Made by a program: the position numbers and the translations under genes
Notes under the pieces: model-generated
What the model saw: only the letters and a program-made list of their open reading frames with translations
What the model was told of the DNA's origin: nothing
Databases searched by the model: none
Shown: piece after piece, positions 331 to 20,500 of the stretch
How the letters are laid out: each line of letters begins with the position of its first letter
Numbering within the stretch: position 1 is the stretch's first letter
Assembly: GCA_045614105.1 (NCBI GenBank)
Contig: JAZLCF010000129.1
Span: forward strand, 1 to 41,443
Length of the DNA stretch: 41,443 bases
Origin: Alphaproteobacteria bacterium
GTDB taxonomy: Bacteria > Pseudomonadota > Alphaproteobacteria > CAAHEQ01 > UBA3637
Direction of reading: 5' to 3'

Positions 331-336
331 AGAACC

Positions 337-365: not shown

Positions 366-367
366 GT

Positions 368-1537: not shown

Positions 1538-1562
1538 TTTCCCTCTAAGTCAAAAAAAACAC

Positions 1563-3759: not shown

Positions 3760-3773
3760 GATTCTTGTCAAAA

Positions 3774-3802
3774 GGGGCCTATTCGGATAGGCCTCTTTGT
3801 TG
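3774..3802 (+). terminator. Rho-independent terminator after rne
   Basis: A 9-bp stem GGGGCCTAT / ATAGGCCTC (one G:U) with a TCGG loop, followed by TTTGTTG. Confidence 0.6.
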
Positions 3803-3914
3803 ACTGATGTCTTATGACATTGCGCCTAAGGGAAAAAAGATTGGTATTTGAAAAAGATATTGCATTTTGTTTTTTTATGCTTTATTCTGAAAAACATAAG
3901 ATTGAGGAGTAAAA

Positions 3915-4241: not shown

Positions 4242-4247
4242 TTTTTA

Positions 4248-4538
4248 TCAAGCGCTGGCGATGATTTGAAATGTGCCCTCTTGAATGGGGGGCGTGTTTG
4301 TATATGGCACTGTCACGGGTTGAATGCCAAGCACCATAGAAAATGAAGGACCTTTTAAGCATTTTTGTAAAAATTGATTGATTGTCTCTTGTTCCCCTTT
4401 GACCATTATTTCTACTGATCCGTCTGAAGCATTACGCACCCAGCCCGATAAATGCATTTGCTGGGCCGTTGTTTCTGCCCAACGTCGATAACCGATTCCT
4501 TGAACTCGACCGATGATTTTAAAGTGTTGTATGCTCAT
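4248..4538 (-). CDS. acyP: Acylphosphatase
   Basis: 96 aa with IGRVQGIGYRRW...SGWVRNASDGSVE, the acylphosphatase signature. ATGA start/stop overlap with the upstream asmA-like gene. Confidence 0.85.
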   Translation of the reverse strand: MSIQHFKIIGRVQGIGYRRWAETTAQQMHLSGWVRNASDGSVEIMVKGEQETINQFLQKCLKGPSFSMVLGIQPVTVPYTNTPPIQEGTFQIIASA

Positions 4539-6823
4539 TGGGTGGATAATGTTTCAAACAATGTGTCCAATAGCTGTTCTTGAAATTTTTTCTTATCAGA
4601 TTGGGCCGCTGGACTTCTTCGTTTTTGTGAAGTCTGTGTTGTTTTTGTTTTTTGAGAGGTTGTTGATTGAAATTTGACTAAAGCGTCTTGTCCTAAAACT
4701 TGCTGACACAGGCCATATTTTGATGAGGATTGATTTTGTGTGCCAGCATTTGTCAATTGCTCCAGTCCGGTTTTGATGAGTGAGGTCGCTACCTTTTGTT
4801 GGTCAACCTTTGGTTCTAGTGCATTAAAGGGACCTGCAATTCTGATAAATTTACTGAATGATAGGATCTCATTTGCCTTGTCAGCATTGACAAGAGTAGG
4901 TTGCAAAACAATGTTCATCGTTTTTTGGGGTAAATTCACGGTTCCTTCCGCTACAATATCCAGGGCATTTGTTTCTAATGCAAATTGTTTTGTGCCAGAA
5001 ATAATGCCGTTATGAAGGGAGATTTTAGCGGCGGCACAATTCAGCATCAATTGGTTATCCGTATTGCTGAATGTAATGTTTTGTGTTTGTTTGCCCAAAT
5101 TGAGCATTTTGGGCAGATTTATCAACCATTTATTGATAATTTGTCCTTGATTGGCCTGCAAAATAACTTGACCATTTAAACTTTGCAACAAAGCCGATAA
5201 GGTATTCCCTTTGGCTGAAAGCGTTGTTTTTGCATCCAGAATAACATTTTGAAGATCCTGTTGTAATGAACGGATGCCATTCAAATTTAAATGCGTGGCT
5301 TGTGCGACCAGCTGAACACTGTGATGTGCTGCTTGTGTCTGAATATCGCCAGAAAGCTGTCCTTCCAAGAGACCTATTTTGAAAGGGGCTTTAAGCTGTC
5401 CTTTGTCAAGTGTAGATTTAGTGGTGACACTCATATAACCAGCCAACCAATTTCCCGTGTTCAAGTGATTGATATTTAAATCCAACGATCCTTGTATCGC
5501 TTTTAACATGTCCCAAGGAAGTTCTGTTTCTTTTTTTGTTGCATTCTTCGGTGCTGGAGTTGCAGGCGTATTGACAGGCTTGTTTTGCATATGAATAAAG
5601 TCATCGGGATCCAGAAAGTCTGATTTTAATGAAATAACGGCGCTGTAAGAGTTCTTGTCTTTACGCTGCAAAACTAAGGCTAATAATGCATCCGATCGAT
5701 TCGCATCAAGCGTTGTTTTTGATGTTTTAATCTTATCCATACTCAACGAAAAATCTCCTGTTACTGAGACGGGCTGTATTGTCCATTCGTTTGTGCCATA
5801 GGGGGTTAAAAGTTGGGCATTCAGATTTAAATCTAAAACGGGATTTTTCATCAGTTGTGTCCCTTTGCCTGTGGCAGATAGATCAAAAAACTTCCCTGCA
5901 TCTGCTTGAAATGTGAATTTTTTAATATCCATTTTATCCAGATCTCCCGCCACTTGTAATTGCATTTCCACACTTTTATTTGGAATCAATGGATGCTGAA
6001 TGGTGAAAAAGTTGAGCAATTCCTTTAAATCATTTGTTTTTAAGGAGGCCGTAGCTTGGATATCCGCAAATTTGATTAAATTGCCAATTTTTCCATTTAA
6101 ATTGAGGTTGCCCAGACGCGATTTAATTTTGATATCCACAGGAAAGTTTGGTTGCTTATTTAAAAATTGAAATAATAAGCCTGTATTTGCAGTCAAATTA
6201 AAGGTTTGTTTGTTATATACAATGCTTGCATCCAGTTTATGGAAGTGTCCTATTTTTAGGTTTTTCAATGTCAAGTTTTGTTTTTGAAGGGTATTGTCAT
6301 AAGAAACATCTAAAGCGTTGATGAGAATTTCATCTATGCGCAGATTTTGTGACAACATAGCCACCGTGTTGGAGGAACTTTTGGGCGTGGATGTAGATGG
6401 CAGTGTTTCTGGGGGGGGCTCAATGCTCCAATTATCTTGTTGTTGATTTTTATAAAGATTGAGAGTTGCTTCATCTACATCAATTTTATGTATAGCGATT
6501 TTAGAATGAATCAATGGAACAAGTTCCAATTCGGCATTCATTTCCTTGATGAATAACAAAGGCTGTTTGTCCTGAAATGGTTCATTATTGGCAATTTGAA
6601 AATTGTTGATTGTTATGGTTGGAACCATGGCAAGTTTCGTGTGCATGGACTCTATGGTCACAGGGTGGTTCAGCAATAAGGTCAGTTTATGTTCAACTAA
6701 ACGCCTGTAATGATTTAAATCAAATGTTAAAAGAAAAAGAGTTAGAGCAATGGTCAAAACAAGAGCAAGAACCAGCACAATTCCCAATGTTTTTTTTACG
6801 ATACGCCAAAGTATTTTAAGCAT
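4535..6823 (-). CDS. asmA: AsmA family outer-membrane biogenesis / lipid transport protein
   Basis: A single N-terminal TM anchor, then an AsmA-like N-domain (FDLNHYRRLVEHKLTLLLNHPVTIE...). The rest is long, beta-rich, N/Q/T/L-rich repetitive sequence. 762 aa. Confidence 0.8.
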   Translation of the reverse strand: MLKILWRIVKKTLGIVLVLALVLTIALTLFLLTFDLNHYRRLVEHKLTLLLNHPVTIESMHTKLAMVPTITINNFQIANNEPFQDKQPLLFIKEMNAELELVPLIHSKIAIHKIDVDEATLNLYKNQQQDNWSIEPPPETLPSTSTPKSSSNTVAMLSQNLRIDEILINALDVSYDNTLQKQNLTLKNLKIGHFHKLDASIVYNKQTFNLTANTGLLFQFLNKQPNFPVDIKIKSRLGNLNLNGKIGNLIKFADIQATASLKTNDLKELLNFFTIQHPLIPNKSVEMQLQVAGDLDKMDIKKFTFQADAGKFFDLSATGKGTQLMKNPVLDLNLNAQLLTPYGTNEWTIQPVSVTGDFSLSMDKIKTSKTTLDANRSDALLALVLQRKDKNSYSAVISLKSDFLDPDDFIHMQNKPVNTPATPAPKNATKKETELPWDMLKAIQGSLDLNINHLNTGNWLAGYMSVTTKSTLDKGQLKAPFKIGLLEGQLSGDIQTQAAHHSVQLVAQATHLNLNGIRSLQQDLQNVILDAKTTLSAKGNTLSALLQSLNGQVILQANQGQIINKWLINLPKMLNLGKQTQNITFSNTDNQLMLNCAAAKISLHNGIISGTKQFALETNALDIVAEGTVNLPQKTMNIVLQPTLVNADKANEILSFSKFIRIAGPFNALEPKVDQQKVATSLIKTGLEQLTNAGTQNQSSSKYGLCQQVLGQDALVKFQSTTSQKTKTTQTSQKRRSPAAQSDKKKFQEQLLDTLFETLSTQ

Positions 6824-7788
6824 TTTTGACTCCTTTTTAAAAAGTTGAAGGGTTGTTTTTGTTCTGTTTCATCAAATCCAAGTAAGTGAAATGTTTCTTG
6901 CATATGTTTGGGTAAATCAGCAACGACAAGAACATGTTTCCCTGTTGTCGGATTTTGAATATCAATCGCTCGTGCGTGCAAGTGTAAGCCTTGTCCCATG
7001 CCATTTAATCCTTTTTTCCCATATTTGTTGTCCCCTAGAATAGGCGTTTTTAAAATTTCTGTCAAGTGGACACGTAACTGATGGGTGCGTCCGGTCAGGG
7101 GGCTGAGTGCTAACCATGATGCTTTTTTGCCTGTGCTATCTATCACTTCATACACCGAGACAGCCTTTTCACCATGGTCAAAATCTATAACTACTTTTTC
7201 TTTCCCTTTTGTGAGGGGGGCATCAATTTTGCCAGACAAGAATTGAGGTTTTCCAGCCACAACCGCCCAATAAACTTTATGAACAGTATGTGTTTTAAAG
7301 GCGTTTGTCAGTTTTGCAGCGATATTGGCTGAACGAGCCAGCACCAATACACCAGATGTTTCCTTATCCAAGCGATGCACGAGGTGTGGTTTTTCATCTT
7401 TTTCAAAGCGAAGGGCGTCTAATAAGCCGTCAATATGTTGTGTTGTTTTGCTGCCTCCTTGAACGGCCAATCCAGCGGGTTTATTTAAAATGATGATTTC
7501 ATTGTCCTTGTAGATGACAAGATCTTGCATCATCTGAATGTCCTTTTTGGAAAGACGCATCGGTTGATCATCGCGTTTGGGTGTGTCAAGTGGTGGTACG
7601 CGAATTTCGTCGCCCGTATGTATATGTGTGGCCGCCGTTGTTTTGGCTTTGTTGAGTTTGATATTTTTGTTTTTAATGAGGCGTTCCAACATGCCATGTT
7701 TTAAATGGGGATAATGACGCTGAAACCAACGATCCAGACGGATATCTTCATCTTTTTCAGAAACTATGGCAAATTCAACGGTTGTCAT
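6796..7788 (-). CDS. rluC: RluA-family 23S rRNA pseudouridine synthase (RluC/RluD-like) with S4 domain
   Basis: HRLDKETSGVLVLARS catalytic motif, S4-like N-terminus (IRLDRWFQRHYP...) and GRTHQLRVH. Start moved to the ATG at 7788 (MTTVEF...), which is preceded by SD AAGGGAG. The 17-codon upstream extension has no SD. Confidence 0.85.
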   Translation of the reverse strand: MTTVEFAIVSEKDEDIRLDRWFQRHYPHLKHGMLERLIKNKNIKLNKAKTTAATHIHTGDEIRVPPLDTPKRDDQPMRLSKKDIQMMQDLVIYKDNEIIILNKPAGLAVQGGSKTTQHIDGLLDALRFEKDEKPHLVHRLDKETSGVLVLARSANIAAKLTNAFKTHTVHKVYWAVVAGKPQFLSGKIDAPLTKGKEKVVIDFDHGEKAVSVYEVIDSTGKKASWLALSPLTGRTHQLRVHLTEILKTPILGDNKYGKKGLNGMGQGLHLHARAIDIQNPTTGKHVLVVADLPKHMQETFHLLGFDETEQKQPFNFLKRSQKCLKYFGVS

Positions 7789-7842
7789 AAAATTCTCCCT
7801 TTTAAAACAAATCATACCGAAAATGAGGCAAAAATGCAAGGG

Positions 7843-9144
7843 TTATGAACTCGTTTTTTTTAATTTTTTGCGCAGGCCATTCCAATAATCTAAACGCTTT
7901 TGTATTTCACGTTCAAAGCCACGTTCTGCTGGGTGATAAAAAATGCGATGATCCATTTCATCTGGAAAGTATTCTTGCCCCGAAAAGCTATCTTTTGTGT
8001 CTGGATCATATTGATAACCTTTGCTGTATCCGATTTCACTCATCAATTTTGTTGGGGCATTTAGGATGTGTTTTGGGGGCATTAAAGAATCTGTCTCTTT
8101 TGCGGTTCTGACAGCATTTCCCCAAGCGCGATAAACACTGATGGATTTTGGGGCGGTGGCCAAATAAACAACCAATCCGGCAACAGCCAAATCACCCTCG
8201 GGTGAGCCCAAACGTTCATAACTGTTCCAAGCGTTGATGGCTTGAACTAACGCTTGTGGATCGGCCAGCCCCACATCCTCGCTGGCAAAACGGGTCAGGC
8301 GGCGTAAAATATATTTCATGTCTTCCCCGGCCGTCACCATGCGTGCTAGCCAGTAAAGAGCCGCATCGGGATCAGATCCTCGCAGTGATTTGTGCAGGGC
8401 GGAGATCAGATTGTAATGTCCTTCACGGTCTTTGTCATAATTGGGTAGTCGTTTTTGTAGCAGTTTTTCCAATTCATTTTTGTCCAAAATTTCATCTTGC
8501 ACCGCATATTGGTAGATCGCCTCAATCAAGTTGATGAAATAACGACCATCGCCATCTGCTAAAGCGCATAAGTATTCGCGTCCGACATCATCTAGAGGGA
8601 GGGGCTTTTGCATAATTTTTTCAGCGCGACTTGCCAATTTCATCAAAGCATTATTATCAAGGCGATTCAGCACAAACACTTTGCAACGGGAAAGCAATGC
8701 GCCGTTTAATTCAAAACTGGGATTTTCGGTTGTGGCGCCAACCAAAATAATTGTGCCGTCTTCTACATAGGGCAAAAAGCCATCTTGTTGAGCCCGATTA
8801 AAACGGTGAATTTCATCCACAAACAGGAGAGTTCCTTGGCCAGCCATGCGCCGTTTTTTTGCTTCATCAAAAACTTTGCGCAAGTCTGCGACGCCTGAAA
8901 AGACAGCAGATAATTGTTCAAAGTGTAGATTGGTTTGTTCGGCCAAAATGCGTGCGATGGTTGTTTTGCCACAGCCAGGGGGCCCCCATAAAATAAAACT
9001 AGATAGACTTTGATTTTGAATCATGCGCGCTAAGGGGCCTTTTTCGCCCAATAAATGATCCTGTCCCACCACTTCCTCTAAACAAGAAGGGCGCATTTTG
9101 TCAGCAAGTGGCTTATGAGCCAACGTTTCAAACAAACTAACCAT
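7843..9144 (-). CDS. rarA: Replication-associated recombination protein A (AAA+ ATPase RarA/MgsA)
   Basis: Walker A GPPGCGKTT, Walker B LFVDEIHRFN, and MgsA C-terminal motifs (YDKDREGHYNLISALHKSLRGSDPDAALYWLARM). Confidence 0.9.
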   Translation of the reverse strand: MVSLFETLAHKPLADKMRPSCLEEVVGQDHLLGEKGPLARMIQNQSLSSFILWGPPGCGKTTIARILAEQTNLHFEQLSAVFSGVADLRKVFDEAKKRRMAGQGTLLFVDEIHRFNRAQQDGFLPYVEDGTIILVGATTENPSFELNGALLSRCKVFVLNRLDNNALMKLASRAEKIMQKPLPLDDVGREYLCALADGDGRYFINLIEAIYQYAVQDEILDKNELEKLLQKRLPNYDKDREGHYNLISALHKSLRGSDPDAALYWLARMVTAGEDMKYILRRLTRFASEDVGLADPQALVQAINAWNSYERLGSPEGDLAVAGLVVYLATAPKSISVYRAWGNAVRTAKETDSLMPPKHILNAPTKLMSEIGYSKGYQYDPDTKDSFSGQEYFPDEMDHRIFYHPAERGFEREIQKRLDYWNGLRKKLKKTSS

Positions 9145-9150
9145 AAGATA

Positions 9151-9179
9151 AGTATAGCCTATTTTGGCCTAAAAAACAA
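9151..9179 (-). promoter_or_regulatory. Candidate promoter TTGTTT-N17-TATACT ending 6 nt before the rarA ATG
   Basis: On the minus strand, TATACT is at 9156->9151, then TATCTT, then the ATG at 9144. No SD is present. Confidence 0.4.
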
Positions 9180-9219
9180 CAAATTTTGATCTATTTGTTG
9201 AGGAGGACATCAACTCAAT

Positions 9220-9819
9220 TTATTCTTCCACAAAAACGCTTTTGCTTTGGTTGCACAGGGGGCAAACCCAATCATCGGGCAGTTCTTCAAATGGAATTTC
9301 CCCATCATAAAGGTAGCCACAAACGGTGCATCGCCAATGTTTTGGTCCATTAGAGATGGCTTTTCTTGCTTGATAGGTCGCATATAGTAAAGGTTCCTCC
9401 ATTGTGCCTGCTTCACCAGCTACAACATCACATAAAAATAAGTGATGTCCAGAAGTTTTGATTGTTTCTTTGACTTTTAGGTACATATAGGCAACTGCAT
9501 TTTTATAAATGGGTAAGTCATGATATAAAATATATTCTACGGTCCCCCATTTATCAGTATCGCGTGAGGAATTCATGCCAAATAGTTCTATAACATTCTC
9601 GGGCGTATGTGTGGGTAAAATGGACAGTGTTAGTTCGCCTGTTTTAACCACATTCTCCATTGTATGCGAGGCGTTGTTTAAAGACACAATCACTTGCTGT
9701 GGATCGGTTTCTACCACCATCACGGAATCTATACAGCTGCCAATCAAACGGCCTGTCTCCTCTTTTGCGCCCGTTAAATAAACTCCTTGTGAAATTTTAA
9801 ATAATGCTGCTAACTCCAT
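9220..9819 (-). CDS. Flavin reductase-like domain fused to C-terminal rubredoxin (high-molecular-weight rubredoxin type)
   Basis: The flavin-reductase-like core includes [12 protein letters not shown]. The C-terminal [35 protein letters not shown] is a complete rubredoxin with CxxC...CxxC. Start placed at 9819 (MELAAL...) behind SD AAGGAG. Confidence 0.8.
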
Positions 9820-9892
9820 ATAAGCTCCTTTTCCTACAAAAATAGCTCCACCAATTATAAAAATCAAGAGCATATCTTGGAATAAAAAAAGA

Positions 9893-9921
9893 TTGACATT
9901 TTGTCGTGTATCAGTTATGCT
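9893..9921 (+). promoter_or_regulatory. Candidate sigma70 promoter (TTGACA-N17-TATGCT)
   Basis: Consensus -35 at 9893-9898 and -10 at 9916-9921, 29 nt upstream of the 9951 ATG. Confidence 0.45.
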
Positions 9922-9950
9922 GACCCCAATCTTAACAAAAAGGAGTCAAA

Positions 9951-10529
9951 ATGCAAAAAGCAGAATCAGTCAAAGAATTTGTGGAACGTGTTGATCAAGC
10001 GAAAAAGAAAAATCCCAAAGATTTATCTTCAGATCAAGATTTAACAATTGCCATCATGAATTTGATTTCCATTGAGGAGCATTTAATTTTTTCGGGGGCC
10101 AAAACAGGAAAGACTTCATTTTATGATATGGTACAAGATGTGCGCGAATTGCGCAAAAATTTAATGCTTAAAATCATTCCGAGTTATGAGGGGGAAGTGT
10201 GGTGTATTTCAAAGCACTTGCTGGCTACGGCAATGCGTTTGATGGAAGTGGGCACAAAGCAACAATCAATGGGGCATAAAGAGGAGGCCTATCAGTTGTT
10301 TAATCAAGCCTATGATTTATATTGTTTGTTCTGGGGGTTGAATATGAATTTGGTGGATGCAAAAGATATTCAATGGAAACCAGATGATTTAGAAGAAGTG
10401 AAAAGGGAAGTAGAAGCGTTAAAAGTTGCCGCTCCCATTAAAAAAGAAGTTGCTGTGCCAACGGATAATTCTTTGTTTGGAAAATTGAAATCTGTTGTGC
10501 GCAAAGCGGTAGATTGTTGCATTGAGTAG
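9951..10529 (+). CDS. Hypothetical protein (192 aa)
   Basis: SD AAAGGAG upstream. Predicted helical, ends ...VDCCIE. No family recognised. Confidence 0.6.
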   Translation: MQKAESVKEFVERVDQAKKKNPKDLSSDQDLTIAIMNLISIEEHLIFSGAKTGKTSFYDMVQDVRELRKNLMLKIIPSYEGEVWCISKHLLATAMRLMEVGTKQQSMGHKEEAYQLFNQAYDLYCLFWGLNMNLVDAKDIQWKPDDLEEVKREVEALKVAAPIKKEVAVPTDNSLFGKLKSVVRKAVDCCIE

Positions 10530-10536
10530 GAAGAAT

Positions 10537-10914
10537 ATGAAAAAAATTTTATTGTTTATTGTCGCATTATTTGTTTTTATTGCATGGGAGTTTGGATATA
10601 AAGAATCGGCTGTTTCTGCTGAATTGATTGCTCCAAATGAAATTTATGTCTTTACGCAAAAGACATGTTCGCATTGTCAGTCTGCGGAAAAATACTTAAA
10701 AGACAGGTATCCAGATTTAAAGGTACACATGAAAGATATTGCGGAGCCCAAAAATCGGATGATGTTTTTTGCGTGTGCTGCAAAGTTTAAATTGAATAAA
10801 TATACAGTGGGAACGCCTCTTTTTTGTATGGGAGATCATTATGTGTTGGGCTGGAGTTTTGAGGAACAACAACAGTTTGATACTTATGTGCAAGACTTTT
10901 TACCAAAAAACTAG
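10537..10914 (+). CDS. Membrane-anchored thioredoxin/glutaredoxin-fold protein (CSHC active site)
   Basis: N-terminal hydrophobic anchor MKKILLFIVALFVFIAW. Then IYVFTQKTCSHCQSAEKYL, the pattern of a beta strand followed by CxxC at a helix start. Start set at the ATG 10537 behind AGGAAG. Confidence 0.7.
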   Translation: MKKILLFIVALFVFIAWEFGYKESAVSAELIAPNEIYVFTQKTCSHCQSAEKYLKDRYPDLKVHMKDIAEPKNRMMFFACAAKFKLNKYTVGTPLFCMGDHYVLGWSFEEQQQFDTYVQDFLPKN

Positions 10915-10923
10915 GATTCTGTC

Positions 10924-11541
10924 ATGTCTTTGATTGTTCAAGGTTTCGTGAAGGCGTCGTTAAAAAATAATAATTACATTGTTGCGGATTCAGAAAAGAA
11001 AGAGGCAATCTTAATTGATTGTTCTTGTCCCGATGATGAGATAATAAATTGGTTGAATCAAAATGGATTAGTCCTGAAATATATTCTTTTGACACACGGG
11101 CATTTTGATCATGTGGCAGGCGTGAATTATTATCAAGATCAATGGGGCATAGACGCTTACTTATATGAAAAAGATTATTCTTTGTTGTCGTATTTTGAAA
11201 AATATGCTCAGTTGGCACGACAAAAAGTGGGGGAGCAACCTCAGCATATAAAAAACTTTGATTTGAACGCCACATTTCATGTTGGCAGATATCCGATTGA
11301 GATTATTCCAACGCCAGGACATACGCAAGGCGGGGTTTGTTATTTGATTGAAGGAAATTTGTTTTCGGGAGATACTTTATTTCACGGAACGTATGGACGG
11401 ACAGATTTAGATGAAAGTGATGAACAAGCCATGCAAAAAAGTCTACAAAATCTGTTTCAAAAACTGCCGGACGAAACACCTGTTTATCCTGGACACGGAG
11501 CCACCACTACGATAGGTCATGAACGGTCTCTTTATCAATAA
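10924..11541 (+). CDS. MBL-fold metallo-hydrolase (glyoxalase II-like)
   Basis: THGHFDHVAG (HxHxDH motif), GHTQGG, and a C-terminal PGHG. 205 aa. Confidence 0.85.
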   Translation: MSLIVQGFVKASLKNNNYIVADSEKKEAILIDCSCPDDEIINWLNQNGLVLKYILLTHGHFDHVAGVNYYQDQWGIDAYLYEKDYSLLSYFEKYAQLARQKVGEQPQHIKNFDLNATFHVGRYPIEIIPTPGHTQGGVCYLIEGNLFSGDTLFHGTYGRTDLDESDEQAMQKSLQNLFQKLPDETPVYPGHGATTTIGHERSLYQ

Positions 11542-11822
11542 GAACGACAATCATTTCCTTCGTTTTTCCAATTGGTAATAGTGTTGTCAGTGACTGTAAA
11601 TGTTGTTTTGCACCAGTATTTGTTTCCTTGAATTTTGACCTCTTTTTTGTAAGCTAAAAGTTCTGTTTTCTTATCCAGTTTATAGGTTTTATCAGGAATA
11701 CCCCAACCCAATACCAGCTCGGATTTTGGACGATTGAGCCAAGAGTTCAATTTCGCTTGATACTTGCTTTCGGTTGCACAGCCCAGTAAAAGGAAAGCGA
11801 AAAGTAAAATCAATTTTTTCAT
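11535..11822 (-). CDS. Small lipoprotein (hypothetical)
   Basis: MKKLILLFAFLLLGC contains a lipobox (LLGC). SD AAGGAGG lies upstream of the ATG at 11822. Confidence 0.7.
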   Translation of the reverse strand: MKKLILLFAFLLLGCATESKYQAKLNSWLNRPKSELVLGWGIPDKTYKLDKKTELLAYKKEVKIQGNKYWCKTTFTVTDNTITNWKNEGNDCRSY

Positions 11823-11912
11823 AAAACCTCCTTGTTGAATGCTCTGCATTATATCAGGTATCTTATTGCGGTGTCAAGTCCGAAAGTTGTTGTAAAAGGT
11901 AACGCAATAAAG

Positions 11913-13085
11913 CTAATGACTTTTGAGGCATAGCTGGCTGACATCTGTTAAGGAAAGTTCTCCCTTTTGTTCGGCTAAATTTTTGGCTTTTGGCATCAAA
12001 GTGGCGACTTGTTCCGCAGATAAAGAAATGCCGACTTTGGAACATAAAAGCTTCAACGCTGCTTTACCAGACTGGCTGGTAAAACCAAAATTTTCTCCAT
12101 CCGTGCGACCAATTAGTTCTGGGGGATAGGGAATATATTGCCCTTTTGCAAAAATTTTTGTTTTAGTGGCTCCATCTTGGTGAATGCCACTGCGGTGTAA
12201 AAAACAATCACGTCCCATTAAAGGTGCTTTTTCCCAGATTGGTACGCCAGATAATTGGGCGACAACCTGTGCGGTATGATAAAAATGAGCCATGTTTAAA
12301 GGGACATCTATTCCTGAATTATATAAAGCCAAAGCGGCTTCAAACATATTGGTATTGCCACATCGTTCGCCCAGTCCATTGATGGTTGTTTCTAATTGGG
12401 TGGCACCAGCAAAAAAACTTTCCACTGTGGTGGCGGTGGCCATACCTAAATCGTTGTGACAATGGACGGACAACTGGGCTTTATCGCCAATAGCAGCCTT
12501 TACTTGTTTGACCATTTCAACGAAAAACATCGGATGTGTGTGTTCTACTGTATTTGGTAGGTTGATTACTGTCACGCCGGTTTGAACGATTTGATCTAGT
12601 ACTTTAATGACGTCCGTTAAATTTTCTTTGCAATCCCCGAAATGCTCCACGGAAAATTCAATTTGTCCGTTTGGCGGTAATAAAAACTGGGCTTGTTTGG
12701 TGGCTTGAATTGCCATCTCAGTCACTTCATTTAGGCTTTTATGTAAAATGTAGTGTAAGCCCATAGCATTTAAAGGGACAAAAATGTGCATGCGTGGATT
12801 TTGTGCACCCTGTAAGGCTTGTGCAGCCAACATAACATCTTCTGGGATGGCACGAGCTAAGACACTGAGCGTGACATCTTTGGGGGCATGTTGGACAAGC
12901 AAACGACAAGCATCAAAATCCATTTGGCTAGAAGCTGGAAAGCCAATTTCAATCGCCTTAATACCTAAAGCCAACAACTCTTTGAAAATCACCAGTTTTT
13001 CTTGAGGATTCCAAGGATGCTTTAAAGATTGATTCCCATCGCGCAGTGTGGTGTCATAAAACACAGGCTGAGATGAAATGGACAT
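11913..13085 (-). CDS. 2-isopropylmalate synthase / homocitrate synthase family protein (HMGL-like catalytic domain only, 390 aa)
   Basis: FYDTTLRDGNQS, IEIGFPASSQMDFD and HCHNDLGMATA are DRE-TIM aldolase motifs of the LeuA/NifV/CimA family. There is no room for the roughly 150-aa LeuA C-terminal regulatory domain. SD AAGGAG upstream. Preceded by a Leu-leader attenuator. Confidence 0.8.
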   Translation of the reverse strand: MSISSQPVFYDTTLRDGNQSLKHPWNPQEKLVIFKELLALGIKAIEIGFPASSQMDFDACRLLVQHAPKDVTLSVLARAIPEDVMLAAQALQGAQNPRMHIFVPLNAMGLHYILHKSLNEVTEMAIQATKQAQFLLPPNGQIEFSVEHFGDCKENLTDVIKVLDQIVQTGVTVINLPNTVEHTHPMFFVEMVKQVKAAIGDKAQLSVHCHNDLGMATATTVESFFAGATQLETTINGLGERCGNTNMFEAALALYNSGIDVPLNMAHFYHTAQVVAQLSGVPIWEKAPLMGRDCFLHRSGIHQDGATKTKIFAKGQYIPYPPELIGRTDGENFGFTSQSGKAALKLLCSKVGISLSAEQVATLMPKAKNLAEQKGELSLTDVSQLCLKSH

Positions 13086-13102
13086 TTTTGACTCCTTCTA
13101 TT

Positions 13103-13130
13103 AAAAAAAGCACCCTTCCTAAAAGGGCGC
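13103..13130 (-). terminator. Attenuator terminator in the leader of the LeuA-family gene
   Basis: The minus strand reads GCGCCCTT-TTAGG-AAGGGTGC (8-bp stem, one G:U) followed by TTTTTTT. It ends 17 nt before the structural-gene ATG. Confidence 0.75.
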
Positions 13131-13163
13131 CGGATTCTTGTATTTTTAAGAAAAACATACCTT

Positions 13164-13226
13164 TTAGGAAATGGCTTCGCCTCCGCACAACAACAATAAT
13201 AAAGCTAATAGTATGTCTTTTTTCAT
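13164..13226 (-). CDS. Leucine-rich leader peptide MKKDILLALLLLLCGGEAIS (20 aa)
   Basis: ATG AAA AAA GAC ATA CTA TTA GCT TTA TTA TTG TTG TTG TGC GGA GGC GAA GCC ATT TCC TAA. Seven of eight consecutive codons are Leu. The stop codon is embedded in the 5' arm of an 11-bp antiterminator helix. Confidence 0.55.
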   Translation of the reverse strand: MKKDILLALLLLLCGGEAIS

Positions 13227-13233
13227 AAGATGA

Positions 13234-13262
13234 ATGTTAGCACATTTAATAATCAATGTCAA
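13234..13262 (-). promoter_or_regulatory. Candidate promoter TTGACA-N17-TAACAT for the leader transcript
   Basis: On the minus strand, -35 is at 13262->13257 and -10 at 13239->13234. The leader ATG starts 7 nt after the -10 and has no SD. Confidence 0.4.
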
Positions 13263-13346
13263 TATCTTTTTAAAATCAAAAGTGGGCCAAGACTTGACCT
13301 GCTTTGTTTTATATGATATCATTGTTGAAAATGAAGGGATAGTGAT

Positions 13347-13883
13347 ATGTCAGAAACGATTTTGTATGACAATACGTTGTCAGTTGGTAATCATGTTTTT
13401 CGTGGCCCCGTTTTGGAGGTTCCTGAGGCACAAGAGGCGCGTCCAACGGCCAAACAGATTTCAAAGTTATGGGATACTGCGCGTGTTTTGGGCGAGGTTG
13501 GTTGGGCTTCACATGTCCTGTATGTGGGAGAATGGTTGGCAAGTGTCAGAATGCCGCAAAAGGAAGAGAAAGCTTGTCGGCGAGAGCTTGAAAAATATTT
13601 TAGGAGATACTGTCCAAATATCCGGCGAGATGTGACGAATATGGAACTGCATGCTGCAATTTCTCACCAGCTGGAACAATATAAACCACGCTTTTCTAAA
13701 AGAGATTTGCAGGCTTTGTTTTTGGCTTATCAACAATGGCAAAAATTGGAGCCTCGTACTTTGAAGCAACAGCGTGAGAAGGCATGGGTGGGCTATGGAT
13801 TGGCGACGATGATGGCCTCCAGATATTATAAAGCTGCTTTTCCCGAAAAGGATCCACTGGTCAAAAGAATCTATGCGCGATAA
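13347..13883 (+). CDS. Hypothetical protein (178 aa)
   Basis: A candidate promoter TTGACC-N17-TATCAT (13294-13322) and a weak SD GAAGGGA lie upstream. No motif recognised. It overlaps alternative ORFs on both strands, which I consider less likely. Confidence 0.5.
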   Translation: MSETILYDNTLSVGNHVFRGPVLEVPEAQEARPTAKQISKLWDTARVLGEVGWASHVLYVGEWLASVRMPQKEEKACRRELEKYFRRYCPNIRRDVTNMELHAAISHQLEQYKPRFSKRDLQALFLAYQQWQKLEPRTLKQQREKAWVGYGLATMMASRYYKAAFPEKDPLVKRIYAR

Positions 13884-14141
13884 AAGCCTTCTATAACCGA
13901 AATTGTGATTGAAAAAGTCGCAAAATGATTGATTTGTTGCGACCTGTGAAGACACTAAAAACGAGATATATGGTCGTATCCCGTTTTGTTGATTTCCTAT
14001 GAAGGTATGTCTTGAGGTACTTAAAGTGTACGTTTCCCGTATTTGTGTGGATCGTATTTAAGAAAAGCAATCTTTTTTTGAAAGACTTGCAATTATTTTT
14101 GAAATTGGCTACACTGAACATAATAAAGGAAAGGATAAGCA

Positions 14142-15249: not shown

Positions 15250-16107
15250 ATGTTTGGAAAAATAAAAGAATTTTTTATAAAGCATCCCGAAGAGGAAGAA
15301 GCCATAGAAACTGTGGAAGAAATTATGGATGAACGCGAAGAGCGTGGAGATGATGTGTTGGTGGATGATGATGAAATGTTGCTGCTGAAAAACGTGTTCA
15401 AATTGCGTGACAAGCGAGCAGCAGATATTGCTATTCCGCGAGCGCAAATTGTGGCGATCCCAATCAATGCGACGCCGGCCGAGTTGAAAAAAGTTGTGTT
15501 AAATGACAAATACACGCGGATGCCTGTGTATGAAAAAACGTTGGATAATGTGGTGGGTGTGTTGCATACTAAGGATTTATTGGGAGCTGTTTTGGAGAAA
15601 AAGTCTATTGATGTCAAGCGGTTGATGAATGTCCATGTCTTTTTTGCAGCGCCCTCTATGCGGGGGTTGGATTTGTTGCGAGAAATGCAGGCCAAGGGGA
15701 TGCAGCTGGCGGTCATTGTGGACGAGTTTGGAGGGACACAAGGATTGGTGACTTTGGAAGATTTGTTGGAGGAAATTGTGGGGGAAATTGAGGACGAACA
15801 CGATATGTTGGATACGCCCCCCGAGTTGAAGCAAATTTCTCCGCGTATTATTGAATCTGATGCTCGGGTGGAGTTGGTCAAGCTGTGTGGTATGGTGGGC
15901 GATTTTTTAACGCCTGCGGATAAAGAGGCTGAATTGGATACGATTGGGGGGCTTATTTTCCATATAACGGGTCGCTTGCCTTATCGGGGAGAAATTGTCA
16001 CACACGCCAGTGGCTTGAAGTTTCAGGTGTTGGATGTGGATGCACGTCGGATTAAAAAAGTAAAAATTACATGTTTTGAACCCTTGAAAAAAAAGAAAAA
16101 CAAGTAA
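15250..16107 (+). CDS. corC: CBS-pair + CorC/HlyC domain protein (CorC/TlyC/YbeX family)
   Basis: A tandem CBS region (IPRAQIVAI..., VGVLHTKDLL, AVIVDEFGGTQGLVTLEDLLEEIVGEIEDE) followed by a transporter-associated C-terminal domain. Starts 1 nt after the ybeY stop. Confidence 0.85.
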   Translation: MFGKIKEFFIKHPEEEEAIETVEEIMDEREERGDDVLVDDDEMLLLKNVFKLRDKRAADIAIPRAQIVAIPINATPAELKKVVLNDKYTRMPVYEKTLDNVVGVLHTKDLLGAVLEKKSIDVKRLMNVHVFFAAPSMRGLDLLREMQAKGMQLAVIVDEFGGTQGLVTLEDLLEEIVGEIEDEHDMLDTPPELKQISPRIIESDARVELVKLCGMVGDFLTPADKEAELDTIGGLIFHITGRLPYRGEIVTHASGLKFQVLDVDARRIKKVKITCFEPLKKKKNK

Positions 16108-16131
16108 GGAAATTTTTTTCTAAAAAAATGT

Positions 16132-16159
16132 TTGCAAAACAAAAAAAAAGTAGTATAAT
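16132..16159 (+). promoter_or_regulatory. Candidate sigma70 promoter (TTGCAA-N16-TATAAT) for the giant ORF
   Basis: -35 at 16132-16137 and consensus -10 at 16154-16159. A strong SD AAGGAGG at 16192-16198 lies 4 nt before the ATG at 16203. Confidence 0.55.
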
Positions 16160-16202
16160 GCTTAAAAAAGTGTATGTTTAATCCCAGAAATAAGGAGGGA
16201 AA

Positions 16203-19200
16203 ATGAAAAAGAATGATGTTGAAGCCGGTCGTTCAATGCTGGAAACATTAAGTGTTGTGGCGATGATTATGGTGGTGACAATTGCCAGCATTGCAGGTTT
16301 TGATTATTTGATACAATATAGAAATCGTCAGGAAACCGTTAAAACGGTCAATTTGTTGGTCACATCCATCAAATCTTCGGATTTTACGCGTCGACAACAG
16401 AAGGTAAATTCTGTGTTAAAGGCCGATGAAGTTGTCAAAGGACCAAAGGTGAATGAAAAAGGTGTTTTGGAGTTGCCTGATTCCCCTAATAGTTATGGTG
16501 TTGTACGTACCTTGAAGCAGGGAGGGTATATGGTGGCCTTGCAAATCAATCCCATGGTTTGTGATGAGATGTTTAAATCTTTGGCGGCTCAATCCGCTAT
16601 TGTGTTTCCTATGTTTGATAAAAATGGGACGCGGTTGACGGATCCCGGCGCTCCAATGTCTTCGGGTGATTTTGAAAATGCCAGCAAGTGTGCTGTTGAA
16701 AAATTGGCAGGTGAAGAGTCGGATGCGGAAGGGGTTAAGTGTCCAACAGCGACTGAATGTAAAGGATCAAATACACCGGATTATTGTAAGGGTGTGGATT
16801 TAAAAGAGTATGAAAAACAAGTAAAGGAAGGAGAGGCAAAGGAAGCACTGACTGACCGCTACAACGCAATTATGAAAGCTTGCAGTGGTGGCAATGGTTC
16901 TGGGGAATCCACCGCGTCTGCGTCGGAAGACACGGGTGTGGTGTCTGGGTATGTCTTGGCGGGGTTTGGAGGCCCTGGTGTCATTGGTTCTGGTGGTGGA
17001 ACGGGGGCTGGTTTCATATTGACTGGGTGTGATAATCCTGATGCTATCCAAGGAACACACGATTTGGCAGGTGCCAGTGTGCGGTGTTGTGATCCAAAGG
17101 ATGTATGTGGTGATGTTTGTAATTGTCCACCGGAAAATCAGGTCACTGTGAGTGGGCAATGTGTTTGCGCAGAATGTGATCTAGATAAGGAATTCCATGA
17201 TGTTGAAACTTGTACAAATAAATATTCCCTCTATCAAAGACACGTTTGTGTTCCTGCAAATATTCCATATTGTGGAGAATGTTCTGTAGACGCTGATTGT
17301 CGGATAGATGGTTATGATCCATATAAGGACGATGGGACTGCCTATAAGGATCATGAAAAATATGATGGCTTTAGAAAAAAGAATGATGAGGGCGTCTACG
17401 AATATAATATGTTCTGTGTGAAGGGCAATGTGTGTCGTGAATGTAATCACGGTTATACAGAGGGAAAATCTGACGATGATACGGTTGTCAGCGATGGTGC
17501 GGGCAATGCATATTGTCCCAAAGACAGACCAATGTGTACGGCGGGTGCATGTCAGCCATGTGACGGCACGTATGATCCCAAAACGGGTAAATGTGGCTGT
17601 ATTGATAACGAGACGGAGAGTAATCTTGACGAGGGTTGTAATGAGGAGACAGGACTCAAGCTTTGTATGCCAACGAATCAAGCTTTGCGTAACCGGAATG
17701 GTGGTTGGCCAAAGGGAGAGGAGCCCTCTGGAACAACATGTAAGAAGTGTTTTGACAGTTATGATAGCACGGGTGTCACTGATGGGCGCTCCATAGAGGC
17801 TGATGATGGTTGTGAAAAGGATAAACCTCTATGTCAGGTGAGTGAGAGCCAGAAGGATAAGAAGAACAAGTATGGTGATTTTTGCCATAAGTGTCGGCGC
17901 AGTACTCTAAAACCGGATGACTTCAAAGCAGAAATGTATGATGAGGGGTGTTCTGACGCTGCTGGGGGACGAGTGTGTAAGGCCAAATATGATGAATATG
18001 GTGATGAAGGGTGTGCCTTCTGCGTTGATGATGTGGGTGGTGCGGCTGTTGACACGGGTTGTGCTGGCAACACGGATGGTAAGTTATGTTGGGTGACCTT
18101 GTATGCCGGAGAGACCATACTCCAAGGAACGGGGCGTACTGGAACTGGGTGTGCAAAATGCTTCAATAACTATCCTGATGCAACGCAAAAACCTGAGAAT
18201 GAGGAATATGATGTGGGCTGTCCTGAAGATGCTCCTTACTGTAATGCAGAGCTGAATCACTATGGGAAGAGTTGCAAGAAGCTCCCCTCATGTACTCTGT
18301 ATGTTGATGAAAATGATGAGGAACTTTCGGATGCAGACTGTCAAGAAAAATTTGGCACGACATGTGCAAAAGTCGGTTGTACAGGACGGAAAGAGATAGG
18401 TGATAAGCTTGCATGTGTTTGCTCCGCCGCGGCGTGTCAAGATGACCAGTCAGGTGCCACTCAAGATACTGGTTGTGATGTCATAGGAGACTCTGACCAC
18501 AAGCTTTGTTTGCCGTCCGATGAGGAGAAATTGGAGCAAAATGGTGCTGGCGGAATTGGTTCGCAGTGTATGTTGTGCTTTGATGATCAACCAGATACTT
18601 CTGATAATGCCGATTCTGGTTGTGGCGATAAGCGCTTCTGTTTCAAGACTGAAGGCAAGTATGGAGATTCTTGCCGCTTGTGCAAGCGTGGTGCAAAGAT
18701 TGGTGATGAATTTAAAGGAAAGGATCCAGGATGTACTACTACTACTGTCAATCTTCCTGTGTGTCCTGCCACTTCAGGATCATATAGTGATGCTGATAAG
18801 ACATCTTGTGTCAGATGCATTGACGATGCTGATGGAGAGGAAACAGATACAGGTTGTGCAGATCAAACAGAGGAAGATACGCGAAAGGGAATCAAGAAAT
18901 TGTTGTGTGTCGATGAGGAAAACCCAACACCACATGACACCATTAAAACGAATAAGCCTGGAACTGTCTGTAAGTTATGCTATAACAACGTGAGCGATGT
19001 AGTGTTTAGACCAGGACAGTATGACATAGGATGTTCAACCGATCGTCCATACTGTGATGCGCCATGGCATGAATATGGTGATGAATGCAAGGATGAGCCT
19101 CCTGAAGCGACCGAATGTACAAGATATGTTGTGAGCAGTAAAGGTGGTTTTGAAGAGGTATTGCCAGCAGATTGTCAGGCCACAGTGGGCAAAGCATGCA

Positions 19201-20423
19201 CCCCAGAAAATTGTCCGACGATGGTCTTTTTTGCCGAAGGTGAGAACACCGATATCCATGCTTGTTATTGTGAAGGACAAACAGAGCCCAAACCTTGTGA
19301 CGATGGATACTATGTGGCAGGGACAGGTGAAGATCCTAAGGAGTTAAAGTTAGATGGGGCTGAGTGTGCTGCTTTGCTGGCTAAAGACGGCATAGGTTGT
19401 GCTAGCAACAATCCATTGTTCACAAAGAGGCAAATCATGGTGAACAACACCCTTAAACAGTATGCTTGTGTTTATTCGACAAATCCAAACGGATGCTTCT
19501 TCTCGGATGGACAGTGGATTCCTAAATATAACGAGTGGGATGATTTAAAGGTGACTATATCTCAAGATACGAATGTACCTCGCACATGTGATTGTTATGA
19601 TGTGGTGTCAACACCAGAGATAGCTGATGTTTGTAACCATTCATTGGGAGGGAAGGGGCCTTGTCAAGGTTGTAATCCGTCCTCTGGTGTATGTGGTGAT
19701 GGTTGGACGACTGTGACCAGTCGGTTGCTGAAATACTCTGTGAACACTAACTTCTATTGCGAAAGGTATTTATATCTGGAGGCCACTGAAGTAGATGATG
19801 CAGTTGATAGTTCATATCCAGAGGGAATAGTCAGTTTGGTTGATACAACTAAGTTGGATGTGACAGCGGGGGGTAGAGCCCCAAAAGTGACTTATAAGGG
19901 CAAGGCGAATTTGTATCCAGGAATTATGAATGGATGGTGCAATTATGTGTCGAGTAATCACTCTAGTCGCGCTGTGAGAGGAGAACAGCAATTTTTTGTC
20001 AAGGTTAGAGATTATTACTTGGTGGGCAACGGAATGAATGGGTATTTCTATTTCCCAACAAAGGCCTATGCTGAACAAGCATTGAAGGAGGTTAATGGTC
20101 AATGTTATGATATCCCTGCGGCAGGCAGGCATTGGAAAGGGGACTCTGCGCAAGATAGTAAATATGGGACAGGTCGTCAGTTGAAGATTGCAGTGAGCGC
20201 CGCGGAATCTGGAATACAAGGTGCTCAGGTCACCAATAGGATTGTATGGGAAACGACTCCGAATGGTGGATCAAAACTCACTTCTTGTTGGTTGAAAAGC
20301 CTTGAAGATAAAGAAGAGGCTGTGCGGAAGTGGGGAAAAGAAGGGGATTGTGACGCCTTACCACGCACTTCTAAGGGATATCCACAAGAATGTTTCCGTG
20401 AAGATTGGGCGTGTTATTGGTGA
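16203..20423 (+). CDS. Giant (1,406 aa) prepilin-type N-terminal domain protein with a very large cysteine-rich repeat passenger (putative modular type IV pilin/pseudopilin-like surface protein)
   Basis: The N-terminus MKKNDVEAG|RSMLETLSVVAMIMVVTIASIAGFDYLIQY has a short basic leader, Gly at -1, Glu at +5 and about 20 hydrophobic residues, which is a class III signal. A pilin-like head carries the Cys pair C120/C163. A G/S/E-rich linker follows. Residues 276-1032 have Cys every 8-10 residues, including ten D-x-G-C...C...C-x-x-C modules. A distinct C-terminal domain spans 1033-1406. The frame is uninterrupted over 4.2 kb, and only short shadow ORFs occur in other frames. Confidence 0.85.
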   Translation: MKKNDVEAGRSMLETLSVVAMIMVVTIASIAGFDYLIQYRNRQETVKTVNLLVTSIKSSDFTRRQQKVNSVLKADEVVKGPKVNEKGVLELPDSPNSYGVVRTLKQGGYMVALQINPMVCDEMFKSLAAQSAIVFPMFDKNGTRLTDPGAPMSSGDFENASKCAVEKLAGEESDAEGVKCPTATECKGSNTPDYCKGVDLKEYEKQVKEGEAKEALTDRYNAIMKACSGGNGSGESTASASEDTGVVSGYVLAGFGGPGVIGSGGGTGAGFILTGCDNPDAIQGTHDLAGASVRCCDPKDVCGDVCNCPPENQVTVSGQCVCAECDLDKEFHDVETCTNKYSLYQRHVCVPANIPYCGECSVDADCRIDGYDPYKDDGTAYKDHEKYDGFRKKNDEGVYEYNMFCVKGNVCRECNHGYTEGKSDDDTVVSDGAGNAYCPKDRPMCTAGACQPCDGTYDPKTGKCGCIDNETESNLDEGCNEETGLKLCMPTNQALRNRNGGWPKGEEPSGTTCKKCFDSYDSTGVTDGRSIEADDGCEKDKPLCQVSESQKDKKNKYGDFCHKCRRSTLKPDDFKAEMYDEGCSDAAGGRVCKAKYDEYGDEGCAFCVDDVGGAAVDTGCAGNTDGKLCWVTLYAGETILQGTGRTGTGCAKCFNNYPDATQKPENEEYDVGCPEDAPYCNAELNHYGKSCKKLPSCTLYVDENDEELSDADCQEKFGTTCAKVGCTGRKEIGDKLACVCSAAACQDDQSGATQDTGCDVIGDSDHKLCLPSDEEKLEQNGAGGIGSQCMLCFDDQPDTSDNADSGCGDKRFCFKTEGKYGDSCRLCKRGAKIGDEFKGKDPGCTTTTVNLPVCPATSGSYSDADKTSCVRCIDDADGEETDTGCADQTEEDTRKGIKKLLCVDEENPTPHDTIKTNKPGTVCKLCYNNVSDVVFRPGQYDIGCSTDRPYCDAPWHEYGDECKDEPPEATECTRYVVSSKGGFEEVLPADCQATVGKACTPENCPTMVFFAEGENTDIHACYCEGQTEPKPCDDGYYVAGTGEDPKELKLDGAECAALLAKDGIGCASNNPLFTKRQIMVNNTLKQYACVYSTNPNGCFFSDGQWIPKYNEWDDLKVTISQDTNVPRTCDCYDVVSTPEIADVCNHSLGGKGPCQGCNPSSGVCGDGWTTVTSRLLKYSVNTNFYCERYLYLEATEVDDAVDSSYPEGIVSLVDTTKLDVTAGGRAPKVTYKGKANLYPGIMNGWCNYVSSNHSSRAVRGEQQFFVKVRDYYLVGNGMNGYFYFPTKAYAEQALKEVNGQCYDIPAAGRHWKGDSAQDSKYGTGRQLKIAVSAAESGIQGAQVTNRIVWETTPNGGSKLTSCWLKSLEDKEEAVRKWGKEGDCDALPRTSKGYPQECFREDWACYW

Positions 20424-20436
20424 CAAAGCTCCAAAA

Positions 20437-20464
20437 GCCTCATCTGAATGGTGGGGCTTTTTTT
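20437..20464 (+). terminator. Rho-independent terminator after the giant ORF
   Basis: Stem GCCTCA / TGGGGC (one G:U) with a loop of about 9 nt, followed by TTTTTTT (20458-20464). It lies 14 nt after the TGA stop. Confidence 0.6.
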
Positions 20465-20465
20465 C

Positions 20466-20500
20466 TTTACATTTGTATGCAAAAAACATATAATTATGTG
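20466..20500 (+). promoter_or_regulatory. Candidate promoter TTTACA-N17-TATAAT with an overlapping AT-rich imperfect palindrome (possible operator)
   Basis: -35 at 20466-20471 and -10 at 20489-20494. The palindrome CATATAATTATGTG (20487-20500; 12 of 14 positions symmetric) overlaps the -10. Confidence 0.4.

Follow-up and report, generated by a model that had tools for sequence, protein, structure and literature searches.

Relation to described modular pilins

The closest described counterparts of the protein considered here are the modular pilins, in which functional modules are grafted onto a type IV pilin. The protein is the 1,406-residue, cysteine-rich product of a single gene on the 41,443-nucleotide contig JAZLCF010000129.1 of an alphaproteobacterial genome (GenBank assembly GCA_045614105.1); the whole of this contig is called the window, and its large product the giant protein. 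A 2021 InterPro survey of modular pilins covers more than 1,200 proteins, the most extreme multi-domain example having 860 residues; S. sanguinis PilB, with a von Willebrand factor A (vWA) module, and PilC, with a lectin module, belong to this class, and the grafted modules are most probably shown at the pilus tip (PMC8179133). The giant protein follows the same plan, with a short leader ending in Gly, a Glu at position +5, a hydrophobic alpha1 helix, a small module, a linker and a passenger. It differs from modular pilins in (i) the length of the passenger, about 1,250 residues here and about 2,250 in one relative (P0138), (ii) the make-up of the passenger, which consists of uncatalogued Cys repeats and a family-specific C-terminal domain and (iii) the head, whose pilin fold is unconfirmed. 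Because its signal, G↓RSMLE (the arrow marks the predicted cleavage point here and below), falls under the thresholds of IPR012902-type hidden Markov models (HMMs), the InterPro survey could not have caught the giant family. Modular pilins are an established concept, from which the giant family departs in size, type of passenger, signal signature and genomic location. We argue below that the giant protein is probably a modular type IV pilin-like protein displayed at a filament tip as an adhesin.

Three further systems are instructive. The type IVb minor pilins CofB, TcpB and PilV are proteins of about 430–520 residues that have in common with the giant protein a Glu+5, a large C-terminal extension and an expected role at the tip, in adhesion or the binding of a receptor. 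CofB of enterotoxigenic Escherichia coli and TcpB of V. cholerae are tip-located minor pilins (PMC6048534, PMC5207764). CofB, TcpB and PilV are encoded inside a pilus operon, whereas the giant gene is solitary among housekeeping genes; its passenger has no sequence similarity to the three proteins in comparisons with PDB sequences and Pfam, and, unlike R64 PilV, the gene carries no shufflon-like inverted repeat. The KilLMN proteins of Myxococcus form interchangeable minor-pilin tip complexes of Tad/Kil pili (PMC12075869). Like the giant protein as we read it, they are modular pilin-like proteins that are encoded away from the machinery and define recognition at the tip, but they are of moderate size and assemble as heterotrimers in a Tad system, whereas the giant is a single polypeptide with a type IVb-like alpha1. 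Finally, PilC/PilY1 proteins are large (>1,000 residues) tip adhesins of type IV pili and resemble the giant protein in size. They are not pilins, however, having neither a class III signal nor alpha1 and carrying a beta-propeller, and no similarity between them and the giant protein was detected.

The N-terminus as a type IV pilin signal

The giant protein begins MKKNDVEAG↓RSMLE and continues into the hydrophobic stretch LETLSVVAMIMVVTIASIAGF. All of the roughly 20 full-length relatives described below begin x-E-(S/T)-G↓(R/K)(S/T)(M/I/L/V)(L/I/V)E and then run into a hydrophobic helix, and no columns other than G9, E14 and L91 are invariant in an alignment of 22 head sequences. Of these, G9 corresponds to Gly-1 and E14 to Glu+5 in a class III signal. 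An hhalign comparison between an alignment restricted to heads of giant proteins and Bundlin/PilS pilins gave a probability of 98.7% (E 1.6e-16) over residues 4–65. Four matches were returned when the head profile was compared with all PDB sequences, the top three being type IV pilins (Geobacter PilA-N, 7tgg and 9egp, and PilA, 9laa); the three pilin matches are weak (E 0.27–0.6) and are aligned in register, with G-1 placed on G-1 and E+5 on E+5. In-register, sub-threshold matches to N_methyl, TIGR02532, PpdD, GspH, PilV and ComGC are also obtained with other family members and with the small paralogues considered in the next section. Against PF07963/TIGR02532, the paralogues and two family members reach E 0.18–0.5, or about 10–12 bits compared with cut-offs of 16–21.

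A structure prediction by AlphaFold2 from the 22-sequence alignment places residues 5–58 in one long alpha1 helix (54 residues), with a predicted local distance difference test (pLDDT) score of 91–97 over residues 11–50. On these sequence comparisons, the leader and alpha1, approximately the first 60 residues, are homologous to those of type IV pilins and come closest to the G↓RSMVEMLGVLAIIGVLS pilins of the type IVb-like clusters in related bacteria. An earlier note, made from the window alone, had proposed a prepilin-type N-terminus, and the invariant G-1 and E+5, the homology to Bundlin/PilS pilins and the long predicted alpha1 all support it as a matter of homology.

Small paralogues and type IVb-like clusters

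Contigs from relatives of the organism contain shorter genes with the same kind of start. Pilin-like genes encoding 183–201 residues, three of them in tandem, are found together with a gene for a 378-residue protein that has 30 Cys, and all begin M-K-x-N-L-x-x-x-G↓RSMVEMLGVLAIIGVLS. The tandem trio (2392–2949, 2966–3529 and 3554–4105) and one nearby pilin-like gene (16518–17123) lie on a contig, L003, that also carries a giant orthologue. Their N-termini are nearly identical, MKKNLMQLG↓RSMVEMLGVLAIIGVLSIVGIQGYKKAM, their heads are divergent with C-terminal Cys pairs, and they are not beside pilus machinery. The 378-residue protein is encoded on a second contig, L001, that of the closest relative (6481–7617, reverse strand), between an HMGL gene and phoH; its N-terminus reads G↓RSMVEMLGVLAIIGVL and it contains duplicated CxxC modules. 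The window has no such gene at this position (13884–14141), a presence/absence polymorphism of a mid-sized Cys-rich pilin-like gene.

Open reading frames (ORFs) of this type in metagenome loci have a median mature length of 204 residues, and a few carry Cys-rich passengers of 406–464 residues. An N-terminal profile built from the paralogues retrieves 391 proteins, mostly from metagenome-assembled genomes (MAGs) of Alphaproteobacteria, among which one is annotated as “Tfp pilus assembly protein PilE” (JGI) and one matches Pfam Bundlin and PilS. In two loci (L086, positions 1–12000, and L087, positions 1–14000), Bundlin/PilS pilins stand amid TcpQ, Secretin_N/Secretin, PilO, T2SSE and T2SSF genes. 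These clusters include an R64-type PilO (PF06864), two T2SSE ATPases, a T2SSF platform protein and several Bundlin/PilS pilins; judged by gene content, they are type IVb-like clusters of gut Alphaproteobacteria. The two assemblies are long-read ones in which many genes are split by frameshifts. Machinery beside pilins with the homologous N-terminus is seen in L086, L087, L151 and L157, all from related Alphaproteobacteria, and a search for machinery over the fetched loci yielded two extra pilin–ATPase adjacencies. The G↓RSM(V/L)E signature marks a pilin gene family with hundreds of members in gut Alphaproteobacteria that lies below standard signature thresholds. Since standard signatures miss these proteins, surveys based on IPR012902 under-count the pilins of this clade.

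Gene layout and head domain

The gene occupies an uninterrupted ORF whose predicted mature product is about 151 kDa with a pI of 4.65. Its features, with residue numbers referring to the full-length protein, are as follows.

16131–16159, + strand: sigma-70-like promoter, TTTGCA, 17 nt spacer, TATAAT (10/12 matches; a consensus match only)
16192–16198, + strand: Shine–Dalgarno sequence AAGGAGG, 4 nt 5′ of the ATG
16203–20423, + strand: coding sequence of the giant Cys-rich pilin-like protein, 1,406 residues, orthologues found
16203–16229, + strand: putative class III leader MKKNDVEAG, residues 1–9; Gly9 invariant, cleavage after Gly9 predicted
16230–16376, + strand: alpha1 helix, residues 10–58; RSMLE with Glu+5, hydrophobic alpha1-N, amphipathic alpha1-C
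16377–16622, + strand: small conserved head domain, residues 59–140; motifs KGPK...LPDSxxSYAVV...NGxFAxxLQxxPGTC, kept in about 22 family members
16695–17027, + strand: variable acidic Gly/Ser/Glu-rich linker, residues 165–275, recognized by composition; aligns poorly and differs in length among orthologues
17028–17627, + strand: N-proximal Cys-rich domain, residues 276–475; 23 Cys, many of them invariant
17628–18464, + strand: super-repeat A, residues 476–754; 26 Cys, five DxGC...C...CxxC modules and a Cys domain of about 70 residues
18465–19307, + strand: super-repeat B, residues 755–1035; 26 Cys, layout as in A, 36% identical to A
19308–20420, + strand: C-terminal region, residues 1036–1406, with a divergent copy of the family C-terminal domain inside; motifs FYCxRYxxV...ADDxVxSSxPxGI...DRWxxxVG...GYFYF
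20433–20461, + strand: intrinsic terminator, 12-bp stem, 5-nt loop, T-run

A scan of the sequence thus agrees with the earlier description of a 1,406-residue ORF with a promoter, a Shine–Dalgarno sequence and a terminator of its own, and intact orthologues at the same position in other assemblies speak against a chance or broken frame. The hand count of about 98 Cys (about 7%) was likewise accurate: the protein has 98 Cys in 1,406 residues (6.97%), divided 2, 4, 75 and 17 over residues 1–164, 165–275, 276–1032 and 1033–1406. The coding strand had also been judged richer in G+C and G+T than its flanks, and this does not hold. The G+C content of the gene (0.452) and of its third codon positions (0.377) is inside the range of neighbouring genes, and its GC skew is the same as in adjacent genes on the same strand; the composition is therefore unremarkable. 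Horizontal transfer was considered, and no signal of it is seen in base composition.

Prediction of the head from four sequences was unusable (pLDDT 38.6), and the 22-sequence alignment was used instead, giving a model with pLDDT 83.6 and a predicted template modelling score of 0.67. Residues 59–140 (pLDDT 74–88) are predicted to adopt a small alpha/beta topology with strands at 98–103 and 109–114 and a helix at 117–129. Beyond residue 65, the heads of the small pilins have no detectable relation to that of the giant protein. C120 is conserved among close orthologues and is absent from 3 of the 22 family heads, and C163 is not conserved. Because of the latter, C120 and C163 are not a conserved D-region pair, and the suggestion that they form a pilin-like D-region disulfide was rejected on conservation.

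The Cys-rich passenger and its family

Residues 276–1035 comprise a 200-residue Cys domain (276–475) and two tandem super-repeats (476–754 and 755–1035), which are 36% identical to one another with 26 Cys apiece. Each super-repeat contains five modules of the form D-x-G-C-x(4-17)-C-x(8-24)-G-x-x-C-x-x-C in addition to its Cys domain of about 70 residues, and the whole protein has 11 DxGC and 13 CxxC motifs. Across the family, the unit can be written CxxC-x-[DN][DST]-x(3-6)-D-x-GC-x(3-8)-P-x-C, with a length of about 35–50 residues. The motifs of the earlier description, D-x-G-C...C-x-x-C modules, are thus confirmed, and its loose layout gives way to an ordered domain followed by two super-repeats. 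Residues 276–475 are the best-conserved part of the passenger, and positions 1–332 of the passenger profile match three relatives (P0126, P0127 and P0136). The net charge of the Cys-rich regions is -67. Neither DNA repeats nor shufflon-like inverted repeats of note occur in the gene; the super-repeat duplication is therefore presumably old, no recent DNA repeats being left.

The expectation that the passenger lies outside known families is borne out. The giant protein matches no Pfam family at E<=1 and likewise nothing in NCBIfam; nine other family members searched against Pfam and NCBIfam give none, bar sub-threshold N_methyl; and the passenger profile returns only noise from PDB sequences. 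Pfam Cys-rich families (EGF, furin-like, VSP, DUF4215 and others) do not match the repeats in the giant protein or its relatives. As judged from these searches, the 4-Cys acidic repeat is undescribed and outside Pfam. The C-terminal part, as had been noted, is Cys-poor and aromatic-rich and ends in DWACYW.

Relatives were sought with a word-indexed search of 5.8 billion proteins and an exhaustive HMMER search of 1.84 billion cluster representatives, the latter with a profile of the passenger (residues 270–1406). The word-indexed search found two full-length homologues only, at 38% and 30% identity, and with residues 1–170 as the query a word-based search found only a fragment (P0004). The HMMER search returned 45 proteins at E<=1e-3, of which 29 reach E<=1e-10 and 17 reach E<=1e-30. 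About 20 of the 45 have the same architecture, a conserved head of about 140 residues, a variable linker, a variable number of Cys modules and a conserved C-terminal domain, in proteins of 970–2,409 residues with 7–9% Cys. The C-terminal domain of the family, about 220–250 residues, is marked by FYCxRYMHVSD..ADDFV.SS.P.GIG ... DRW...VG...GYFYF; the copy in the window protein is 24–31% identical to those of the family (best, 31% to P0126), and the domain has no Pfam match in the giant protein or nine other members. One member, P0139, corresponds to NCBI entry MBQ3696247.1, which bears the annotation “hypothetical protein”. A scan of GTDB genomes with the full-length alignment gave no relative, its two N-terminal patterns being too specific; one relative locus (L006) was recovered by synteny through its Sel1 neighbour. 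Of the relatives that bear a name, the nearest are MAGs labelled “Alphaproteobacteria bacterium”, recovered from goat abomasum and the guts of humans and animals, and by its recovered sequences this is a small, lineage-specific family of uncultured gut and rumen Alphaproteobacteria.

Cysteine chemistry and eukaryotic carriers of the module

The same 4-Cys module recurs in proteins of quite different organisms. A 4,560-residue EukProt protein with a vWA domain (P0125) matches the passenger profile at E 2.7e-139 over 23 stretches, and Mv16018 of Mesostigma viride (P0153) matches at E 1.2e-9; both have the same module of about 35–50 residues as the giant protein. Modules of super-repeat B align to the EukProt protein and to P0141, and the module is also found many times in bacterial proteins with Sec-type signals. 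The eukaryotic module proteins start with a Sec-type or eukaryotic N-terminus and lack a pilin module, whereas the giant protein has a pilin-like head. Dozens of module copies, for which no Pfam model exists, are present in the eukaryotic proteins P0125, P0153, P0152 and P0155, the last together with DUF7467.

The earlier note had pointed to a loose likeness to Cys-rich antigens of protists, and the recurrence of the module in eukaryotic proteins fits this. CxxC-rich antigens such as the variant-specific surface proteins (VSPs) of Giardia may resemble the repeats; the Pfam VSP and furin-like models do not match the 4-Cys module. What emerges is an uncatalogued Cys-rich repeat that is common to bacteria and eukaryotes and that may have been shared between domains of life. 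We tentatively raise, and regard as rather doubtful, the further idea that gut and rumen Alphaproteobacteria share the repeat with algae and protists through inter-domain transfer and show it as a stalk, of an estimated tens of nanometres, at the tip of a type IVb-like pilus. With a terminal domain that diversifies rapidly, such proteins would be a new class of giant pilin adhesin tuned to eukaryotic (protist or host) surfaces, and the G↓R-S-M-x-E leader would be the reason why current pilin signatures miss them.

The presence of the module in secreted eukaryotic proteins, the even Cys counts and a DsbA-family gene near one orthologue favour extracellular repeats stapled by disulfides over metal sites. 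Binding of Ca2+ by the D-rich motif is conceivable. The DsbA-family gene (DsbA/Thioredoxin_4, 277 residues) is at 7682–8515, reverse strand, of locus L091, three genes 3′ of the giant orthologue P0150. The anaerobe-like lineage of P0150 encodes a DsbA-family thiol-disulfide oxidoreductase, and the Cys richness is accordingly less puzzling in an anaerobe than it had seemed.

Divergence and genomic position

The giant gene evolves rapidly amid conserved neighbours. Comparison of the window with the syntenic contig L001 gives identities of 95% for PhoH, 92% for CorC, 92% for rubrerythrin and 96% for RF-1, with lower values for Sel1 (77%), YhdP (76%) and YbeY (71%). Against these 71–96% for the flanks, the giant protein is 35% identical to its L001 orthologue and 29% to the next relative. 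The head is its best-conserved part (50–65% identity to close orthologues) and the C-terminal third its least conserved. This pattern, an indirect line of evidence, is typical of exposed surface proteins under selection, and the gene is a likely determinant of interaction with a host, a partner or phage.

In the window, the giant gene sits between corC and rubrerythrin, and the order giant–rubrerythrin–Sel1 is kept in six lineages; in the P0137 subfamily the rubrerythrin neighbour is absent. The upstream context varies and the rubrerythrin–Sel1 side is mostly kept. In L006, a goat-abomasum MAG, the giant orthologue is directly 3′ of tRNA-His (15641–15717, reverse strand) rather than corC, and in L090 another subfamily member adjoins smpB. 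A functional operon with rubrerythrin was considered and ruled out by the terminator of the giant gene and by the separate promoter of rubrerythrin (11/12 matches, 20466–20494); as each gene has its own signals, the adjacency looks like inherited synteny and not an operon. Replacement of lnt, a gene suggested by the position of the giant gene, was also rejected, there being no similarity between them and the position being merely syntenic.

A model for the giant protein and its alternatives

We consider it reasonably probable, on sequence grounds, that the giant protein is a modular type IV pilin-like protein displayed as an adhesin at a filament tip. In the model, a prepilin peptidase would cut after Gly9, and alpha1 with its Glu+5 would dock the head module (residues 59–140) into a type IVb-like filament. 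Since the body of a filament has no room for the passenger of about 1,250 residues, the protein would be placed at the tip or otherwise on the surface. The flexible acidic linker and a long disulfide-stapled stalk (residues 276–1035) would hold the C-terminal domain out from the cell, to serve in adhesion or recognition, and the fast divergence would reflect selection on an exposed surface. If the giant protein does enter a type IV filament, its 1,406 residues, and the 2,409 of the longest family member, would far exceed the 860 of the most extreme multi-domain example in the modular pilin survey (PMC8179133). The model would also pose a puzzle, namely how a disulfide-rich passenger of about 150–250 kDa passes a secretin.

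Several observations weigh against this model. The N-terminus of the giant protein has no match to PF07963 or TIGR02532 at E<=10, and an Arg stands at position +1, where pilins seldom have one. In a Foldseek search of the head model against the PDB, the best E was 0.6, with no pilin among the matches and nothing significant, and the head has no conserved D-region disulfide. Neither the window nor any of the loci with a giant gene shows a prepilin peptidase or filament machinery, and in every context seen the giant gene stands apart from pilus genes. When all fetched loci, the type IVb-like ones among them, were scanned for the GxGDxK[L] motif and compared by tblastn with machinery proteins, no A24 peptidase was recognisable, and the organisms of L086 and L087 are not shown to be carriers of a giant gene. 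The earlier note's designation of a modular type IV pilin-like protein of unassigned family therefore stands with respect to the N-terminal homology and the passenger and fails with respect to the D-region.

Some of these observations could be accommodated by a protein that uses the class III signal for export or anchoring only and is a free-standing fibrillar adhesin or coat, not polymerised. It would be processed and brought to the surface by machinery of the type IV filament or type II secretion kind, or else released. Such a protein could be encoded in its own transcription unit and never beside pilus genes, could have a family-specific head without detectable kinship to small-pilin heads past residue 65 and no pilin-like fold by Foldseek, and would be spared the difficulty of fitting a passenger of this size into a filament. 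However, Glu+5 and the whole of alpha1 are kept, which is the signature of subunit packing in filaments, and a bare export signal needs no conserved 54-residue alpha1 and head. We regard non-polymerised display as unlikely.

More improbable still is an ordinary, uncleaved signal anchor that would tether the protein to the inner membrane as a periplasmic protein. The failure to find a prepilin peptidase in any fetched locus, the missed thresholds of curated pilin HMMs and the Arg at +1 would agree with this, but invariant Gly-1 and Glu+5 across 22 divergent proteins are not expected of a signal anchor, and nor is homology, leader included, to Bundlin/PilS pilins. An elongated, acidic, fast-evolving Cys-repeat protein of 150 kDa would also be out of place within the periplasm, and the homologous modules in secreted eukaryotic proteins argue in the same direction.

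That the cysteines are Zn, Fe or Cu ligands in a metal-binding or redox-active filament or a periplasmic metal store is very improbable despite the 13 CxxC motifs, the giant–rubrerythrin adjacency in six lineages and the anaerobe-type genes of the organism, because each module pairs one CxxC with two isolated Cys (GC and PxC) rather than the paired knuckles of Zn ribbons and rubredoxins, no Pfam metal-binding family matches, P0137 lacks the rubrerythrin neighbour, disulfides are expected in the secreted eukaryotic carriers of the module and the Cys counts are even (98 overall, 26 per super-repeat).

Other features of the window

The remaining annotated genes of the window are housekeeping genes and, as had been stated, include no pilus or type II secretion, prepilin peptidase or Dsb gene. 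They encode an AMIN-amidase, RNase E/G, AsmA, a pseudouridine synthase, MgsA, a flavin reductase–rubredoxin, HMGL, PhoH, YbeY, CorC, rubrerythrin, the Sel1-repeat protein, a flavodiiron-type protein, YhdP, PHO4, PhoU, RF-1, PBP1A, PpiC, FtsY, a radical-SAM MiaB-like enzyme, MoxR and DUF58; genes of the anaerobe type are present in the organism. A permuted, two-piece transfer-messenger RNA (tmRNA) was identified by ARAGORN at positions 30–342 on the reverse strand, with the tag ANDNARVAMAA. Permuted tmRNA is a hallmark of Alphaproteobacteria, and the gene therefore gives independent support to the placement of the contig in this class.

Three forward-strand ORFs of the window (9951–10529, 10522–10914 and 13234–13883) are without a Pfam match, and unannotated genes of similar size (192, 123 and 215 residues) occupy the corresponding positions of L001. 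A 924-residue protein encoded at 34183–36957 on the reverse strand has a weak HEAT_2 match only; its gene is upstream of that for a small cNMP-binding protein and lies beside ftsY.

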